Part shown: piece by piece, positions 343 through 63,109 of the stretch
Numbering within the stretch: the first letter of the stretch is position 1
Layout: each line of letters opens with the position of its first letter
Translations under genes and position numbers: made by a program
Notes under the pieces: generated by a model
Databases searched by the model: none
Told to the model about the DNA's origin: nothing
What the model saw: the letters and a program-made list of their open reading frames with translations, nothing else
Origin: Phycisphaeraceae bacterium
Lineage (GTDB): Bacteria; Planctomycetota; Phycisphaerae; Phycisphaerales; Phycisphaeraceae
Assembly: GCA_963674705.1 (NCBI GenBank)
Contig: OY771506.1
Location: 1,952,001 to 2,016,000, forward strand
DNA: 64,000 nucleotides
Direction: 5' to 3'

Positions 343-707
343 GAAGAGGTCTTCTGATAAAGGGTTAACGTGCAAAAAGTATGTTTATTGTATCCGTTTG
401 CTTACAAAGTTTGATTTTAGCAACCACCACAAGATGCGGAACACACGAGCTACAATCACAAGATGAATTACGAATTGTAGGGTATTCGATGCACGACGTG
501 TCACGCATTCGGACAAATATCGCGCTGCCGTAACCAGCGAATCACTGGTAATTTATACCGGCATTATCCGATTGCGCAATGTAACTATGGTTTGCAATGC
601 TGCGAGGTATCACAACAGGATTCGTCATTTGAATCCAAACAAGAATTCGATATCTCAAAAATACATAGCCGCTTGCGGCTTAGCGTGGTAAACCGCGTCG
701 TGACTTG

Positions 708-1988
708 CTATTCACCCTTAAACCGCGCAATCAGTGGCGCTGCCTGGTCCGCGTTAAGCATCTTCAGGTATGCCAGCTTGCCTGCAAGGCGCTGCCGTTC
801 TTTCGGATCAACGTTGTCACCTTGTTGCTTTTGACGATGGATCGCCGCCCGCAGCAATCGGCGGTCTTTGCGCGATAAGCCCATCTGCTCGTTCACCACG
901 ACGCCCGTCACGCGCTGCCTTCGGCCGCGCCGTTGCACCTGCGTCTTGTCGCGGTTTACCGTGAAGCCTTCTTCCTTGACGATGTCGCCGACCACGCTCA
1001 GAAGCGCGCCGACGTCGGCCGAATTACAGGAAAATGTCAGGTCGTCCGCGTAGCGCGTGTAGGTGTAACCCATCTTGCGAGCAAGCCCCGCCAGCCGACG
1101 GTCAAGCCGAAGCAGGATCGCGTTGCACAAGCCCGGGCTCGTCGGCGCACCCTGAACGCAGACGCGCGGCCCGACCGGCACGTGATACACCTTGCCCTCC
1201 GCTTCAACGGGCTGACGCTCAGATTCGGTCATCAACACCGCGAGCGTCGTCGCGACCGGGTAGCTGTACCCATAGGCGATCAACAACCCGCGCACCCGCC
1301 CGAAGTGTATCGACGGGAAACAATCTTTCAGGTCGATCCGCACCACGACTTCTTTGCCTACGTGCGCCGCTGCATTGCTTGCGACACTACGCGAGGTGAT
1401 GAAGCCGTGTGCGTGTTCGCTGATCGGCAGCTTGCTGACGAGCAGTACGTTTAGCTTGCGCTGGATCGCTTTGAGCTTTTGCTTGGGCGCGTGGATGATG
1501 CGCGTGCCGCCGCTGTGTTTTCGTATCGCAAAGCAGATGTAGTGCGGCGAGGTCTCTCGCTCGCGGTGGATGCTGTAGTGTCTGAGTTGCCCGACCGTCA
1601 GTCCGAGCGCTTGGGCGACATCCTGCTCGCTTTGCCAGACGGGCAGGTTGTAGCGGTTGAGCTGTTCTTTGTCTGTTGCCAGGTCGCGGATGTTGCGGTT
1701 GTTCGTCCGCATCGTCGAACTGAACAGCCGGTCCGCCTCTTCGCGCTGCATCAGTTTCTTTTTCTTCGACGTGGACCAGATGTTGCCGGTGCGCTTCGGC
1801 TCTTTTTTCGGAAGCAGGCGAGGGTCGCGCACGGTCAAGCGGCGATGGTTCGGCTTGATCGGTTCGCGTTTGGTGCTGACCGTTTCGGCCGTCGCAGACG
1901 CATCGGTATGGTCCGTCGACCGGGAGACATCGCGTGTCACCCGGCGCGGTTGGCCGAACAATCCTCGGAGCCAATCGATTAATCCCAT
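708..1988 (-). CDS. Retron-type RNA-directed DNA polymerase (reverse transcriptase) with N-terminal extension
   Basis: RT motifs DLKDCFPSI, QGAPTSP and YADD; retron signatures NAxxH (SNAAAH) and VTG (QRVTGVVVN). Confidence 0.95.
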   Translation of the reverse strand: MGLIDWLRGLFGQPRRVTRDVSRSTDHTDASATAETVSTKREPIKPNHRRLTVRDPRLLPKKEPKRTGNIWSTSKKKKLMQREEADRLFSSTMRTNNRNIRDLATDKEQLNRYNLPVWQSEQDVAQALGLTVGQLRHYSIHRERETSPHYICFAIRKHSGGTRIIHAPKQKLKAIQRKLNVLLVSKLPISEHAHGFITSRSVASNAAAHVGKEVVVRIDLKDCFPSIHFGRVRGLLIAYGYSYPVATTLAVLMTESERQPVEAEGKVYHVPVGPRVCVQGAPTSPGLCNAILLRLDRRLAGLARKMGYTYTRYADDLTFSCNSADVGALLSVVGDIVKEEGFTVNRDKTQVQRRGRRQRVTGVVVNEQMGLSRKDRRLLRAAIHRQKQQGDNVDPKERQRLAGKLAYLKMLNADQAAPLIARFKGE

Positions 1989-2007
1989 GACCGGCTCCGA
2001 TCAAAAC

Positions 2008-2193
2008 GAGGAAGACGCGAATGCCCGGGTTCTCTGGTGGACCACTCGCAAGGCTCTGGACTCGTGGCCTCCCGGCGTTGCGTACGCTGGGAACCGTGGC
2101 GGTGTGAAGCATACAAATCACCACCGCGGCGAAACACCGCGGCATCGTTGGCTGGTCGCAAGCCACCGAACCCGGGCATCACGCGTCCTCCTC
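2008..2193 (-). ncRNA. Retron msr-msd non-coding RNA (predicted)
   Basis: Inverted repeat 2008-2032 / 2168-2193 (about 25 bp, one bulge, G-U wobbles on the minus strand) enclosing hairpins at 2149-2165, 2124-2142 and 2070-2092, directly upstream of the RT start. Confidence 0.8.
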
Positions 2194-3783
2194 TTCGTTG
2201 GAAGTCTCATTATATTCGTCGCCGCTGTCAACCTCCCAGCGCGACGGCTGTTTACGCACCTGTTGTGTATCACTCTCCATCGCCGAGGTGCTGCTTGGCT
2301 GATCCTTACGCTGCGGCTCGCTTGCCTTGAAAAGCGCAAGCATGTGCTCGCAAGGTCCCTGGTTCATCAGGTTCTCATCGAAGAACGGGCAGCCGCATCG
2401 GCCGAAGATGATCCGACCCGAATCGTTGACCACCACCTCGACCGGTTTCACGCCGTCCACCTCGCCAAGCACGCGCCAATCACGATACACCACCTCGCGC
2501 GTGATCTTTCCCTCGGGCGTCTTCAGCTTACGCACCTTCTTCGTCTCTTCGACGTTGCACGAATCGATCTGCACGCGCTGTTCGTTCAGGAACTTCTCTG
2601 CTAACTCACGCCGACGGTCGGGCGGGAAGTACGTCGCTTCATCGGCAGGCTCTTCGAATAACTCACGATGCCGGTAACGCCGGTTCTCGACATCAAACAT
2701 GCACTGCCCACGCCGACACAGCCGCACCAACGTGCGCGACGCCGTCGGGTGATCGACGCCAAGCGATTCAGCCACCTCGCCGATCGATGCGTGATACTTT
2801 TCTCGCAATAAGCCAAGCACCGGCTCAAGTAGTCCATCATCCGCCTGCGCCGCTTCGGCCAGCGCATCGAACCCACCAGTTCCCGTAAACGCAGAGCCCG
2901 ACCAGCCCGTCATCCCCAGCAGGAACGTCATGCCCGGCAGCTTCACCGCGTAAAAACTCGGTAGCGCCCGGCCCTTCAGATAAATATCCACGCTCTCAGC
3001 AAACGGCAGCAAACCCTCGATCAGCTTCAGCCGCTGCCTGCCCCACACGCGCGTCGACTTCTGCTCCGTGTAGTTGTGTTCCGCGCCGATCAACGGCACG
3101 ACATGCTCCCAAGGCTCAAGCACCAGCCGCGCATCCTCGCCCGGCGGGAACTCATACCGCAGCGCACGCGGCGAAACCTTCGCCTTCGTGTATCGCATGA
3201 ATCGGATCGCAGATAACAAATCGATAGGCTTCACCGTCAGCCGTGTGCCCGGCATGCCCATCGCCGCCTGCACCTGCAAAAACCCGCGCACCCACGTCTC
3301 GGGCAGCTTCACCTTCTTCTCAAACCGCCCGCCCGCGCTCTGCGTCTCCACCGTTACACCCTCCGCGCCGATGCGGAACGTCGTCTCCCGGCTGCTTCGC
3401 ATCTCACCCAACGCGCCCCACAACCACGCGGTGAAGTCGATGTTCGTCGTCCCCGTCTGCACCTCGCCGACCGGCTCGAACACATCAGGGTCAACGATCA
3501 ACGCCGCATACGTCGATTGATCCTGGCTGAACGCTTCAAAGAAAATCCGATCCGGGTGCACCGTGATCACCGGGTCCAGCAAGTCGCTCTGCGCGATCCA
3601 CGTATCATCCGACCAGATCGCTTCGCCCAGCGCCCGCATCGCGACGCGGAAGATAAACCCGTGCTGCTTGATCTTGCCGTGGAAACGCACGGGCCGACGC
3701 GCGTTAGCCGCGATCCCAAGGTTCGCGCTGCTGCGGTCCGCTTCAAACACCGAAGGCGATGCGTAGTCGATCAGCACGATCAT
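2179..3783 (-). CDS. SWIM zinc-finger protein with internal winged-HTH, retron-associated
   Basis: C-terminal CxC-x12-CxH (GRCGCPFFDENLMNQGPCEH); HTH-like segment ASIGEVAESLGVDHPTASRTLVRL; acidic tail; ATGA overlap with the upstream gene. Confidence 0.85.
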   Translation of the reverse strand: MIVLIDYASPSVFEADRSSANLGIAANARRPVRFHGKIKQHGFIFRVAMRALGEAIWSDDTWIAQSDLLDPVITVHPDRIFFEAFSQDQSTYAALIVDPDVFEPVGEVQTGTTNIDFTAWLWGALGEMRSSRETTFRIGAEGVTVETQSAGGRFEKKVKLPETWVRGFLQVQAAMGMPGTRLTVKPIDLLSAIRFMRYTKAKVSPRALRYEFPPGEDARLVLEPWEHVVPLIGAEHNYTEQKSTRVWGRQRLKLIEGLLPFAESVDIYLKGRALPSFYAVKLPGMTFLLGMTGWSGSAFTGTGGFDALAEAAQADDGLLEPVLGLLREKYHASIGEVAESLGVDHPTASRTLVRLCRRGQCMFDVENRRYRHRELFEEPADEATYFPPDRRRELAEKFLNEQRVQIDSCNVEETKKVRKLKTPEGKITREVVYRDWRVLGEVDGVKPVEVVVNDSGRIIFGRCGCPFFDENLMNQGPCEHMLALFKASEPQRKDQPSSTSAMESDTQQVRKQPSRWEVDSGDEYNETSNEEEDA

Positions 3784-5690
3784 GCGACCACCTCCGCCGC
3801 TTCTTCAAGCCCGTACACGACAGGCCGCTCCGCCGCTAAGCGCAATCCCGGATATGCATGCAATACCCGACCGATCAGGCCGATCAATTGCTCCTTCGGA
3901 TACTTCTGGTCCGGCAAGCGCAACGCAAGCCGCGCCCGCTCCAGCACACGCTTCGCCGACGCCGCATCGTGCCTCGCCGCATTCGCCAGCGCATCGAACG
4001 CCGGCAGCCTCGTCTTACGATGGATCGGCCGGAGCAGCGTGCCCAGCAATATGTCCAACTGCTCCGCCGCCAGCGCACGCGCCTTTTCGTTATCCTGCTC
4101 CAGCACGCGATACGCCAGCATCTGCACGTGGATGTCCGACCCTTCGATCAGGTCACACACCGCGCCGGGCACTTCCAAGTAACTCTCAAACGACCGCACA
4201 AACATCAACCGCGCCAGCTTGTTCGTCTTCAACAACCGGTGATAGTCGTAAATCGAAAACGCCGGCACGCGCGTCAATACCTCCGATGCACGCTGCGCAA
4301 ACGCCGCCGGATCGCGATCGCGAATCGCCTGGTAATAATCGCCGAGCTTGTCCGCGGTCTCCATGAGTTTGTCTTGCTGCTTGTGCCCATAGATGTAGCT
4401 ATACGACGCCCGCGTCACATACCGGCTCGCCATCAGGTCGATCAGTTCTTCATCGTTTGCCTGCTGTGCCGCTTCAAGTAAAAGCGGATACCCACCCCAC
4501 CAGCTCGGCGTCACATGCGCTTTGTAAGGCCCGTGAATCAATCCGGGATACCGCTCATACATTTGGGCCGCGAGTTTGTCCTCCAGCCCGTGCACCCTCA
4601 CCATCCCGAACCCCGCCCAGTTCCACTCGCGCGACGCGCCCGCCAGCGCCCGCAACCGATCCAGCCGCTGTTCTTCTGCTAACCCATTATCAGCAAGCAG
4701 GTCCGACACCGCTTTGTTGAACGTGCTCGGATTACGATCCAACCGGATCGCCGTCGCCCACAGGTCCCACCACCCACGCTGCGCCGCCAGCTTGATCAAA
4801 GGCGTACCCCGGCTGCCGAACCACCCGCCGATCGCGCTGTTCAGGTTCGCTCGAACGTAAGGCATCACATCGCGCCCGCGCGCCTCAAGCAACTGCACCA
4901 TCCCCGATACCAGGTCCAGCCCGTAACCCGTCGGGTGAATCTGCTCAAGCGCTTCGTTCAGTTCTTCCGCATCACGCACCGACCCCGTCAGCCGCAGTGC
5001 ATCCTGCTGCCATTCCTTGACCGGCACCATCTTGCGGTAAAGCTCGTTCGCAAAATCCTTGTCCTGCGCATCACGCGCCGCCTGCTCCAGCTTCAGCCAG
5101 CGTTTGCGTTTTTCGCTACCCCAGAAACTCACCGGCAGATGCTTCAATATCATCGCGCTTGATGCGTGATCGATCCCGTACAGCTCTATCGCCGAATCTT
5201 CATCGAATTGAAACCACAGATCATTCTCATCCAGCACGATCGCCCGCGCCGCTGCCGTCGGCGCTTCGCGATACGCCTGGATCATGTCACGCTTCAGCAA
5301 CACGGTATTGATACGCCAGCCCGATGCCGGCGCATACCGCCACTGCATCAGCTTGCGGACCATCGTCGTGTCGCGGTGCTTTCGAGCGCTGGCAAGCCAC
5401 GCTTCCAACTCATCCGCGTAATCCGTCCAACGCACGCGCGCCCAGCGGAAGTTCGGCTCGATCATCCAGTCCGAAAAATGATTCAGAATCAAAGGCCGAA
5501 ACAACACACGGTTCCGCTCGTACAACATCGGCCCCCAGAACCACGTCAGCCCCGGGAACACATCCGATCGCGTCAGCCCCTCAATATGATCGCGCAGCCG
5601 CTGATCGTTCGGCTGCTGCTCGATCAATTCCTGCAGCGTCTTCTGTAACTGTTTGGCTTCCTGGCGTAACTTCGACACGTGATCCCCCAT
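3780..5690 (-). CDS. Large alpha-helical (ARM/HEAT-like) hypothetical protein, retron-associated
   Basis: 636-aa ORF rich in Ala/Leu/Arg/Trp, no signal peptide, GGAG RBS, translationally coupled to the SWIM gene. The fold is inferred. Confidence 0.7.
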   Translation of the reverse strand: MGDHVSKLRQEAKQLQKTLQELIEQQPNDQRLRDHIEGLTRSDVFPGLTWFWGPMLYERNRVLFRPLILNHFSDWMIEPNFRWARVRWTDYADELEAWLASARKHRDTTMVRKLMQWRYAPASGWRINTVLLKRDMIQAYREAPTAAARAIVLDENDLWFQFDEDSAIELYGIDHASSAMILKHLPVSFWGSEKRKRWLKLEQAARDAQDKDFANELYRKMVPVKEWQQDALRLTGSVRDAEELNEALEQIHPTGYGLDLVSGMVQLLEARGRDVMPYVRANLNSAIGGWFGSRGTPLIKLAAQRGWWDLWATAIRLDRNPSTFNKAVSDLLADNGLAEEQRLDRLRALAGASREWNWAGFGMVRVHGLEDKLAAQMYERYPGLIHGPYKAHVTPSWWGGYPLLLEAAQQANDEELIDLMASRYVTRASYSYIYGHKQQDKLMETADKLGDYYQAIRDRDPAAFAQRASEVLTRVPAFSIYDYHRLLKTNKLARLMFVRSFESYLEVPGAVCDLIEGSDIHVQMLAYRVLEQDNEKARALAAEQLDILLGTLLRPIHRKTRLPAFDALANAARHDAASAKRVLERARLALRLPDQKYPKEQLIGLIGRVLHAYPGLRLAAERPVVYGLEEAAEVVA

Positions 5691-5702
5691 AGGTTCTCCG
5701 GT

Positions 5703-5731
5703 AGTAAACCGTATCTGTTGGACAATGTCAA
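5703..5731 (-). promoter_or_regulatory. Candidate sigma70 promoter of the retron operon
   Basis: TTGACA-N17-TTTACT on the minus strand; the -10 is weak and close to the RBS; a GACA-N-TGTC palindrome overlaps the -35. Confidence 0.3.
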
Positions 5732-5823
5732 TACATCGAATGTATGAATTCGATCAAATCTTTTGATAGCAGTGCTGCATCACAACGCAGGCCTGCTGGC
5801 GCTCACTGCGGTACAATGTGGTC

Positions 5824-9956: not shown

Positions 9957-11567
9957 TTACGGCATCTGCCCCTTCGCTTCAGCTTCGCGACGAACGCGCG
10001 CCGCTTCTTCCCAGCTCATATCGACGTTACCACCGTATTCTCTGACCCATGCCTCACGTCGAGACATGCCTTCACCGCGCACCGCGTAAGGCGGTGGCGC
10101 GATCGGGTTATCCGAATGATTTTCGATGCCGGGCGGTAACGCTGCCTTCCAGCCTTGCGCTAATCGTTCAGCAAGTTCGTCGCGGATCGATTCGTACTCG
10201 GCATGGTCTGCAAGGTTTTCGATTTCGCGAGAATCTTTTTGGTAGTCGTAGAGTTCCTGCAGAAGCAGTTCGCCTGTCGCTTCGCGGGTCCATTCAACGT
10301 AGCGATAGCGATCGGTGCGGATCGCGTGGCCGTAGATATGATCGAGCATGCCGCGCGGCTGGCGCGTAAACACAGCCGACTTCCAGGGCCGATCCGGATC
10401 ATCAAGCAGCGGCACGACACTTGTGCCTTCGAGATATTCGGGTGCCGGCAGGCCGCAGAGTTCTACGAGCGTGGGATAAAGGTCGACCAGTTCGACAAAG
10501 GCTCTGCTTCGCGAGCCGTGCTTATCACTTCGGCCGTCCACGATAATCAGCGGGACGTGCAGCGCCGCTTCGTAGTTGGTTGTTTTCGACCAATGGTTCT
10601 GATCGCCGAGGTGGAAGCCGTGGTCGGAGGTGATGACGATGATGGTGTTATCCAACAGGTCTAGCTCATCTGCTTTGGCGACAAGATCACCTACCAGGTG
10701 ATCGATGAAACTGACGCACGCATAGTAAGCCTGCCTGGCTTCACGGGTGTACTGTGCGGAGAAGGGGCGCGTGCGGTCGTTGTGTTCCCATTTGTATTGA
10801 TCGAGCACGTAACGGTCGATCGTCCAGTCGGGTGCGCCCAACGGATGCAACGGGCTTTCCGGCAGCGGCACTTTTTCTACCGGATATAGATCGTAAAACT
10901 GCTTCGGTGCAACGAACGGCAGGTGCGGTTTATGAAAACCGACCGCGAAGAAGAAAGGTTGGTCTTGCTTCGCCGCCGTTTCGAGTGCTGACATCGCTTC
11001 GTTTGCGATCAGTGCGTCGCGGTGTACTTCGATTGTCGATCGAGAAGCTTCGAACGGTGGGCCGCCGGTGGATTTATCTTTCGTTGCTGCGTTTTCCGGG
11101 TTGAAGTATGTCTGCGCGTTTCCCTGGAACCACGGTTCGGACAGGCTCTCGAGGTCCTGGCCGTGATGCACTTTGCCGAAGTGTCGTGTGTAGTAGCCGT
11201 GCGACTTGAAGTATGCCGACACCGTCGGGTGTTTGGGCAAGACTTCCTGCACGAAGTATTCGCTGTAAGGATAATTCACGCCGGCCGTTTCGGGGCGCAG
11301 ACCGGTCAGGAAGCTTGCTCGCGATGCGGAGCAGACAGGCTGCTGCGTGTAAGCCCGTTCAAAAAGCATGCCTTGGTCGGCGAGCTTGTCGAGATTGGGC
11401 GTGACCATATTCTCGTGGCCATACGCGGTTATGGTTGTATTCAGGTCGTCAACGATGATAAACAATACGTTCGGCCGCTCTTGCTGTGCGGACAATGAAG
11501 AAGCGGTCAGCATCACACCGAGCGCGATACAAATCAGGCAGCGAAAAGAGAACATTACTTTTCTCAT
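9957..11567 (-). CDS. Formylglycine-dependent sulfatase (iduronate-2-sulfatase-like)
   Basis: PNVLFIIVDDL, CSASRASFLTG, GFHKPHLPF and SDHGFHLG motifs; signal peptide. Confidence 0.93.
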   Translation of the reverse strand: MRKVMFSFRCLICIALGVMLTASSLSAQQERPNVLFIIVDDLNTTITAYGHENMVTPNLDKLADQGMLFERAYTQQPVCSASRASFLTGLRPETAGVNYPYSEYFVQEVLPKHPTVSAYFKSHGYYTRHFGKVHHGQDLESLSEPWFQGNAQTYFNPENAATKDKSTGGPPFEASRSTIEVHRDALIANEAMSALETAAKQDQPFFFAVGFHKPHLPFVAPKQFYDLYPVEKVPLPESPLHPLGAPDWTIDRYVLDQYKWEHNDRTRPFSAQYTREARQAYYACVSFIDHLVGDLVAKADELDLLDNTIIVITSDHGFHLGDQNHWSKTTNYEAALHVPLIIVDGRSDKHGSRSRAFVELVDLYPTLVELCGLPAPEYLEGTSVVPLLDDPDRPWKSAVFTRQPRGMLDHIYGHAIRTDRYRYVEWTREATGELLLQELYDYQKDSREIENLADHAEYESIRDELAERLAQGWKAALPPGIENHSDNPIAPPPYAVRGEGMSRREAWVREYGGNVDMSWEEAARVRREAEAKGQMP

Positions 11568-11616
11568 GAGATGCCCTTTGGTAATAAGTTGTCATGCATG
11601 TGAATCGAACGATGTT

Positions 11617-11697
11617 GGGCGCCACACTTTGACTGCTCAGCAGCAAAGTGTGCTTTTTTAGAACACACTTCGCCCTCCGGGACAAAGTGTGGCACCC
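11617..11697. repeat. REP/REPIN-like element, family B copy 1
   Basis: GGGCGCCACACTTTG...CAAAGTGTG...CACACTT...CAAAGTGTGGCACCC: terminal inverted repeats with two internal hairpins. Confidence 0.75.
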
Positions 11698-11728
11698 ATT
11701 ACGGTGGGATTGTACTCACGCACAATAT

Positions 11729-12715
11729 TTACCCGACTGGCGTCCAATTATAAGGCACGTATTGATACGCAAAGCTGCCGTCGTCGTACAAGTCGATGAT
11801 GCCGTAGCCTTCTTCGCATTCATGCCAGTTGCCGCCCCACCAGGCGCCGCAGACTGCGCCGCCGCAGATGTACGTGATGTCGAGATACTCGACACGGTCG
11901 ACCAGGTGCATGTGGCCGCTCAGACACAGCTTGATGTTCTTGTGCTGGTAGAACAGGTCCTTGATGCGGTGCAGATCGGTGTGCATGAACTCGCCGGGGA
12001 TTTGCGTGCGTCCTTCCTTGAAAAAGTCTTCATCAAAGAACGGCGTCACCGCGACGATCGGGATGTGTGACACGAACAGGATAGGCGTATCGGGATTGAC
12101 GCTTGCAAGGTCCTTGCTAAGCCATTCGAACTGCTCTTCGTCGAGTTTCGCGATGTAGACCGCTTTAGGATTGGGATTCACTTGCGTGCTGTCGAGGATG
12201 ATGAAGTGCCAGCCCGCCTTATCGAAGCTGTAGTAAGGCTTATCAATACCGAATCGCTGCATCGCCCATTGCTTGCCCCAGAGTGGTTCTTCGCCGGTCG
12301 TTTTGCTTTTCTCTTTTTCCCAGCCCCAGATGTCGTGGTTACCGATGCAGTGCTTGACGGGTAGCGGCCAGTTCTCGCTCAGCACGCTATCCCAGAGATC
12401 CCAGAGTTCTTGTGTGCGTGCTTCATCCTGTGCCAGGGCGTCCATGATCGCGTCGCCGCCGGTGATCAGTAATTCCGGTGGGTCTTCAAGCGAGCGAGCG
12501 TGTTTCAACGCTGCTGCCATACCCAGGCCGCCACCCATCTCCGGCTTGACGTGGACGTCCGTCATGTGTGCGAAGCGTAGTACACGCTTCGGCGTCTTCC
12601 GGCTTGTCGATACAACTTCAGCTTCGGTTTCGTCGGCTTTTTGCAGAAGGATGGCGCCTGCCATCGCACCAGTCGACAGTTTGATCATGCTGCGTCGTGA
12701 GATATTGTGATCCAT
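11729..12715 (-). CDS. Tat-exported calcineurin-like metallophosphoesterase (Icc/CpdA-like)
   Basis: SRRSMIK twin-arginine signal; DxH, GGD, GNHD and GHMH motifs. Confidence 0.9.
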   Translation of the reverse strand: MDHNISRRSMIKLSTGAMAGAILLQKADETEAEVVSTSRKTPKRVLRFAHMTDVHVKPEMGGGLGMAAALKHARSLEDPPELLITGGDAIMDALAQDEARTQELWDLWDSVLSENWPLPVKHCIGNHDIWGWEKEKSKTTGEEPLWGKQWAMQRFGIDKPYYSFDKAGWHFIILDSTQVNPNPKAVYIAKLDEEQFEWLSKDLASVNPDTPILFVSHIPIVAVTPFFDEDFFKEGRTQIPGEFMHTDLHRIKDLFYQHKNIKLCLSGHMHLVDRVEYLDITYICGGAVCGAWWGGNWHECEEGYGIIDLYDDGSFAYQYVPYNWTPVG

Positions 12716-62879: not shown

Positions 62880-63022
62880 AGTGTCGAAGCCAAGGCGGTG
62901 CTATATCGGTTTCGATATCGGATGACTAGGTAAAGGGCAGACCGAATAAGAGGTAGGCCCGTTGACAAGTAAGCCGATGTGGTTCACCACCCCCAGGGTG
63001 CGGAACCACATCGGCTTTTTTT
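62880..63022 (+). promoter_or_regulatory. Structured 5' leader with alternative terminator/antiterminator (attenuator or riboswitch candidate)
   Basis: Promoter-like TTGCTT-N16-TATTGT (62846-62873); hairpins at 62903-62918 and 62935-62960; terminator at 62971-63022, upstream of the gene start at 63110. Confidence 0.55.
62971..63022 (+). terminator. Intrinsic terminator located in a 5' leader
   Basis: 15-bp perfect arms AAGCCGATGTGGTTC / GAACCACATCGGCTT with a T7 tract. Confidence 0.85.
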
Positions 63023-63109
63023 CTTGCTGATATCAGTGACTGTTCAGGATGCCTACAAAGCAAGAAATTTCTTTGATTGCAGGTCATCAACGTACAAAAG
63101 GAACCCGTC

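Follow-up and report, generated by a model that had tools for sequence, protein, structure and literature searches.

The region 2008-2193 of the analysed window, a 64,000-nt stretch of a Phycisphaeraceae bacterium contig (OY771506.1), very probably encodes on its minus strand a conserved type XIII retron ncRNA that would likely act as both primer and template, with priming at G2152, a cDNA running from about 2046 to about 2100-2110, and a branched DNA of 54-65 nt. Judged from its sequence, the ncRNA is the msr-msd RNA of a type XIII retron of the Mx162/Mx65 class, a kind that is already catalogued. The word "unannotated", which the earlier note on this DNA had applied to it, is right with respect to Rfam, where no family reached the gathering score in the window and one chance hit was returned (E 4.2), and only there. 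Models of type XIII ncRNAs date back to 2020, and published covariance models of them exist (PMC13712802). The present analysis adds a corrected map of a compact type XIII member, with G2152, G2045 and a cDNA predicted to run from about 2046 to 2105. The features are collected in Table 1.

Table 1. Genes, RNA elements and predicted DNA elements of the retron operon, in window coordinates.
Feature	Position	Strand	Evidence
Solenoid gene, 636-aa accessory protein predicted to be all-alpha, HEAT/ARM-like	3780..5690	-	ORF list, structure model, homologue upstream of SWIM in related loci
SWIM_XIII protein gene, 534 aa	2179..3783	-	PADLOC SWIM_XIII 2.2e-145; Pfam SWIM 1.1e-5
SWIM protein domains: predicted PCNA-fold aa ~30-295, winged helix 315-378, SWIM CxCx12CxH 463-480			Model, fold searches, motifs
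a1 outer arm	2168..2193	-	Pairs with 2032-2008; two-sided changes in 9/9 modelled outer pairs
a1 inner helix strand	2153..2157	-	Pairs with 2044-2040; ends in invariant A-U pair
Predicted branching G (2'-OH primer), in CAGC	2152	-	G in 67/67, unpaired in 67/67 duplex folds
msr hairpin with UUU loop, likely RT recognition site	2123..2143	-	U2136-G2130 in 67/67; covariation at 2140:2126
msr 3' linker, predicted RT termination and RNA-DNA overlap zone (about 2100-2110)	2100..2122	-	End point predicted
Predicted msDNA hairpin: apical 9 bp (2070-2092) and basal 6 bp (2062-2067/2094-2099)	2062..2099	+	Four G-T pairs in this sequence
Predicted msDNA 5' single-stranded part, conserved	2046..2061	+	7/16 positions invariant in 67 rows; start predicted
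Invariant G opposite branching G	2045	-	67/67
a2: inner strand 2044-2040 and outer arm 2032-2008	2008..2044	-	Pairing with a1
Retron reverse transcriptase (RT) gene, 426 aa	708..1988	-	PADLOC RT_XIII 1.6e-133; motifs NAAAH 205, YADD 313, VTG 360

Operon and type assignment

Along the minus strand the order is solenoid gene, SWIM gene, ncRNA and RT, with the stop of the solenoid gene overlapping the SWIM start (ATGA) and a2 ending 19 nt before the RT start. The best PADLOC model for the RT is RT_XIII, with 444 bits, and the next family scores 307 bits (8.5e-92). All three diagnostic motifs are intact, and the sequence matches of the RT in the PDB are all retron RTs. By PADLOC HMM score, the RT is clade 10 / type XIII. 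The assignment of the whole system to type XIII follows from the gene order, the PADLOC SWIM_XIII and RT_XIII matches, the RT motifs, and the DEDE residues (D70, D78, E83, D116 and E155) and CxCx12CxH zinc motif (C463-H480) of the SWIM protein. The type XIII layout described by Mestre et al. 2020 includes Mx162, Mx65, Sa163 and Ne144 (PMC7736814). A promoter scan returned no sigma-70 promoter, and the identifiable neighbour genes outside the operon are non-defence genes (a glycoside hydrolase), a point against an anti-phage role.

Homologous loci

The search profile was an alignment of 80 of at least 120 RT relatives, and the metagenome set consists of the best 80 of 163 confirmed loci. The complete RNA core was found in 70 of these 80 loci, with five others holding an RNA truncated where the contig stops and five having too little upstream DNA; every locus of the set that extends far enough (the 70) has the RNA. 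Together with the window and one further locus (L095), the 70 loci give 72 rows, reduced to 67 after five duplicates were dropped; the nearest record, L001, whose RT is 98% identical, was excluded as identical. One tight clade accounts for 38 of the 67 rows, and the MAFFT alignment holds 46 of the 67, hand-picked to thin one dense clade. A search of genome contigs with the single RT gave two loci, and the ESM Atlas gave only leads that were unnamed or below 0.9.

The covariance model built here scores distant loci with a long msd weakly (best 21.7 bits). Six distant loci with a longer msd present the same geometry of a G-G followed by an A-U pair, with a spacing of 173-176 vs 107. Upstream of the RT in six genomes of the same class (L005-L010), a long-msd ncRNA was observed with a branch-to-opposing-G spacing of 173-176, GAGA at the predicted branch, and similar 3' sequence.

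Fold and outer stem

The outer arms, 2193-2168 and 2032-2008, form 25 pairs (23 Watson-Crick and two G-U) with one bulge and a perfect 12-bp core, which bears out the inverted repeat and core reported earlier. Folding the 2000-2200 minus strand gives -104.6 kcal/mol (z -5.9, none of 200 shuffles being as stable), and the ncRNA ranks first among 638 minus-strand 200-nt windows after GC correction. In the 46-row alignment, 91% of the outer-stem cells are paired, and the whole structure beats 500 of 500 shuffles as well as all slid registers, a comparison in which the outer pairs, taken from RNAalifold on the same alignment, are favoured over the slid controls. The duplex z is below -3 in 62 of the 67 rows. 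A conserved and covarying inverted repeat was looked for in the homologous loci and is present, in 70 of 80 loci and with all nine modelled pairs of the 46-row alignment changed on both sides. The claim of an msr-msd RNA with an a1/a2 stem is borne out by this covariation and by the RT_XIII and SWIM_XIII matches.

The first 15 nt of the a1 outer arm are the last four codons and the stop of the SWIM gene. In 51 of 65 rows, loose duplex folds extend into this stop codon, so SWIM translation termination may influence RNA folding. Elsewhere in the window, the intergenic plus-strand segment 8050-8340 holds several strong hairpins (z -5.9, the top plus-strand window) and no Rfam match, and further 200-nt folds unusually stable for their GC content lie in 62901-63100 and 11501-11800.

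Inner helix and predicted branch point

The outer stem had been taken to end at 2168, with branching at G2167 or G2166 and a cDNA starting near 2033. This overlooked the inner helix, 2157-2153/2044-2040, already present in the single-sequence fold, through which the stem resumes inward to G2152 and G2045. Five positions, A2153, G2152, C2151, G2045 and U2044, are invariant in 67 of 67 rows by an ungapped count from fixed anchors, and G2152 and G2045 directly face each other just inside the last A-U pair. The three innermost pairs of the inner helix form in 200 of 201 cells, whereas slid registers give 21-68 of 201. The second inner pair is CG in 54 rows, UA in eight, GC in four and UG in one; few events underlie this covariation, since the inner pair next to the A-U changes only three times on the RT tree. 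The inner helix is absent from the RNAalifold consensus, and in the single-sequence ensemble a local hairpin, 2165-2161/2153-2149, which buries G2152, reaches 0.62 vs 0.30 for the inner helix.

The branch context is CAGC in 54 of the 67 rows, TAGC in nine and GAGC in four. In validated retrons, the priming G is described as lying right after the stem in TAGC, CAGC or GAGC, with CAGC for Mx162 and Sa163 (PMC6868368). A second, conserved G that is essential for initiation is described for other retrons by Millman et al. (bioRxiv 2020.06.21.156273). Judging from this conservation, the RT likely primes from G2152 and not from G2167. Since the opposing G2045 is taken to be skipped, as the opposing G is in Ec86, we infer that the cDNA starts near 2046 and not 2033.

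Strand-specific wobbles and the predicted msDNA

The division into an RNA part and a DNA part by wobble asymmetry, proposed earlier from this single sequence, holds across the 67 rows. On the RNA side, the U2136-G2130 pair of the msr hairpin, as described for 2142-2124, would be a mismatch if the hairpin were DNA. Position 2140:2126 of the same hairpin alternates between A-U and G-C, with at least ten changes on the tree. On the DNA side, the hairpin at 2070-2092 has one G-T pair on the plus strand, also as described; the hairpin is present, and its earlier description was incomplete, having missed the 6-bp basal extension. Read as DNA, 401 of the 402 cells of this basal stem are paired; read as RNA, 274 are. 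G-T wobbles on the DNA strand only account for 127 cells, and no cell wobbles on the RNA strand only. The two variable positions of the apical stem have 42 cells pairing only as DNA and three only as RNA; register slippage of short hairpins is possible in this count. The DNA-strand alignment has 98.4% of its cells paired, whereas the basal helix reaches 68.8% on the RNA strand. With ViennaRNA DNA energies, the basal stem is not recovered over its full length.

For the basal stem to close, the cDNA must extend to 2099, that is, 54 nt. The RNA-DNA overlap in retrons is given as 5-10 nt (PMC6868368), and termination is described as occurring before an AT-rich stretch (PMC10849725); on these grounds the cDNA would end near 2105-2110, at 60-65 nt. 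This end is soft, since termination in other retrons is described as depending on RNase H1 and tertiary structure (PMC8989520). The msDNA length is thus predicted as 54-65 nt. The msr 3' linker has a fixed length in 66 of 67 rows, holds a conserved block at 2105-2099, and is 51% AT vs 37% for the core.

Several further pairings were noted in this region. A near-direct 7-nt repeat, 2143-2137 and 2100-2094, has copies without covariation. Through this repeat, the predicted msDNA has in its 3' part a complement to the 5' strand of the msr hairpin, and the repeat copy that lies in the template can pair with the 3' strand of that hairpin. An alternative RNA helix, 2129-2121/2094-2102, was rejected, being broken in 12, 20 and 11 of the 67 rows at three positions. 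A rise in depth over 2041-2082 in one sequencing run (X5) was likewise rejected as a trace of msDNA: the additional contig runs on into another a2-like arm and is read as a related retron.

Constraint and distribution

Between L001 and the window, none of the 186 bases of the ncRNA differ, set beside 52 of 1281 (4.1%) in the RT, 19 of 1590 (1.2%) in the SWIM gene and 103 of 1907 (5.4%) in the solenoid gene. Contigs from two runs, X3 and X5, have 12 and 29 differences, respectively, listed in 1500-2700, none of them between 1957 and 2211; X5 has four more near contig ends at unlisted positions, and this comparison of near relatives covers few, related genomes. Similarity to L001 spans the operon (706-5733), ending at 5733 beside a TTGACA at 5731-5726; the downstream gene is common to both and the upstream neighbours differ.

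At E 1e-60, the RT was matched in none of the 16 other genomes of the family and in 11 of 400 genomes of the class, so that, on these searches, the distribution of type XIII RTs is patchy. No plasmid gave an RT match at E 1e-60, and no phage record covered 80% of the RT, the phage set giving 12 partial matches of 28-34% identity. One survey counts 26 type XIII retrons in Planctomycetota (PMC13712802).

Accessory proteins

The model of the SWIM protein (pLDDT 77, 39 sequences) matches PCNA in Foldseek with E 1e-8, and its residues 34-295 superpose on a PCNA chain with a VIA Z of 18.0 and an rmsd of 2.8 over 229 of 245 residues, at 10% identity. The top rows of clamp matches have 7-13% identity. 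The protein is thus predicted to carry a two-domain PCNA-type clamp fold. In the 39 rows, several arginine and lysine residues located on the clamp-fold helices or next to them hardly vary, and the modelled clamp fold, the winged helix and the zinc finger together point to DNA binding. The DEDE motif sits in the first predicted clamp domain. Mestre et al. tie this motif to transposases and suggest a transposase origin (PMC7736814); a DEDE motif inside a clamp domain, as modelled here, does not fit that origin. The main text of PMC7736814 makes no mention of a clamp or PCNA, and in our literature searches, which covered non-subscription papers, no connection between retrons and a clamp fold came up, nor did any study of how type XIII works. 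The predicted clamp fold, which concerns the SWIM gene next to the ncRNA, would replace the published transposase guess for the type XIII effector with a testable one. The SWIM_XIII family was also seen to score in the control genomes Bacteroides thetaiotaomicron and Methanosarcina acetivorans.

The solenoid protein is modelled as nearly all helical (pLDDT 87), with weak fold matches to armadillo/importin-type, ARM/HEAT proteins (best E 2e-5) and no Pfam or PADLOC match. The upstream HEAT/ARM-like genes described for type XIII belong to clusters 216, 259, 1688 and 3262 (PMC7736814).

Proposed mechanism and alternative readings

In the proposed mechanism, the operon transcript would fold through a1/a2 and, by analogy with other retrons, region Y of the RT would bind the UUU-loop hairpin. 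The 2'-OH of G2152 would then prime synthesis from about 2046, with the opposing G skipped, and host RNase H would strip the template and set the stop, both steps again being modelled on other retrons. The branched product would carry about 50 nt of RNA beyond the branch together with 54-65 nt of DNA, and the RT-msDNA complex may retain the accessory proteins, by analogy with other retrons.

Two other readings of the structure itself were weighed. It appears very improbable that the RT primes where the outer stem ends, on G2167 or G2166, with a cDNA from near 2033. In this sequence the perfect stem does end at C2168-G2032, the minimum-energy fold of the single sequence does leave G2167 unpaired (pairing probability 0.36), as first described, and G2166 is a G in 64 of the 67 rows. 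However, the 2167 column holds a G in 31 of the 67 rows and changes at least 19 times on the tree, and in 25 of the 29 nearest rows it is a G-C stem pair. The break at 2167 is particular to this sequence. This position also lacks the AGC context and a conserved opposing G, and G2166 is paired in 65 of the 67 duplex folds; the invariant positions are G2152 and G2045 instead. A structure that works without reverse transcription, as a cis-regulatory leader, a terminator or a repeat element between genes, is hardly credible. It would account for the a1 arm overlapping the SWIM stop, for a2 ending so close to the RT start, and for the terminator-like score of the msr hairpin, but the ncRNA is present in a single copy in the genome, the G-G at the stem end is invariant, and an RNA-only role leaves unexplained the one-sided DNA wobbles of the basal stem (127 cells against 0).

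As for function, we favour an anti-phage sensor over a role in host DNA maintenance, holding the former at about even confidence. The msDNA hairpin would be a bait for phage DNA-processing proteins and would restrain the SWIM protein. The host-role reading, in which the RNA and msDNA are as described and the clamp-fold SWIM protein and msDNA serve host DNA repair, replication or stress response, is quite possible though somewhat doubtful. It draws on the predicted PCNA fold, on operon proteins in which no clear toxic enzyme domain was found, and on the plasmid and phage searches reported above. It also draws on the moderate correlation of type XIII with the host 16S and its vertical inheritance in myxobacteria, as described by Mestre et al., who suggest possible roles other than defence for some retrons that are passed on vertically, type XIII among them (PMC7736814). 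Against it stand the patchy distribution in family and class, the differing upstream neighbour in the nearest relative, and the defence against phage described for other retron types that were tested (PMC8989520; bioRxiv 2020.06.21.156273); our literature searches turned up no type XIII retron that had been tested for defence. A bolder form of the anti-phage sensor, which we consider unlikely, takes the type XIII SWIM protein to be a real PCNA-like ring parked on the msDNA as on primer-template-like DNA. Here the msDNA would be a short hairpin, rich in G-T pairs, whose single-stranded 5' arm is conserved; its loss, or its binding by phage replication proteins, would free a clamp that jams replication. 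If true, this would give the first-discovered retron class a nuclease-free mechanism.

Comparison with known systems

The system shares with type XIII retrons (Mxa1/Mx162, Mxa2/Mx65, Sau1/Sa163 and Nex2/Ne144), as described in PMC7736814, the RT N-terminal extension and the winged-helix and SWIM protein with the DEDE motif. The solenoid gene, which has no PADLOC match, would correspond to their upstream HEAT/ARM-like gene. The ncRNA follows the same plan of a1/a2, a short msr hairpin and an msd hairpin. The DEDE motif, linked to transposases in that work, lies here in a predicted PCNA fold. Clade 10 is reported among the best RT-DNA producers (PMC10849725).

The CAGC at the predicted branch is also that of Mx162 and Sa163. 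The msDNA of Mx162 is 162 nt, against the 54-65 nt predicted here. The predicted length resembles that of the type XIII Retron-Mxa2 (Mx65) of Myxococcus xanthus, whose msDNA is 65 nt by the naming convention (PMC6868368). Compared by description, Mx65 has GAGC at the branch, a context found in four of the 67 rows, where the window has CAGC, and it has a substituted N in NAXXH, which is intact here. Retron-Eco1 (Ec86) is of type II-A and has a different effector. Beyond retrons, residues 34-295 of the SWIM protein are alike in predicted fold to the PCNA, 9-1-1 and beta sliding clamps; in the predicted model, unlike in those clamps, the clamp region is fused to winged-helix and SWIM domains.
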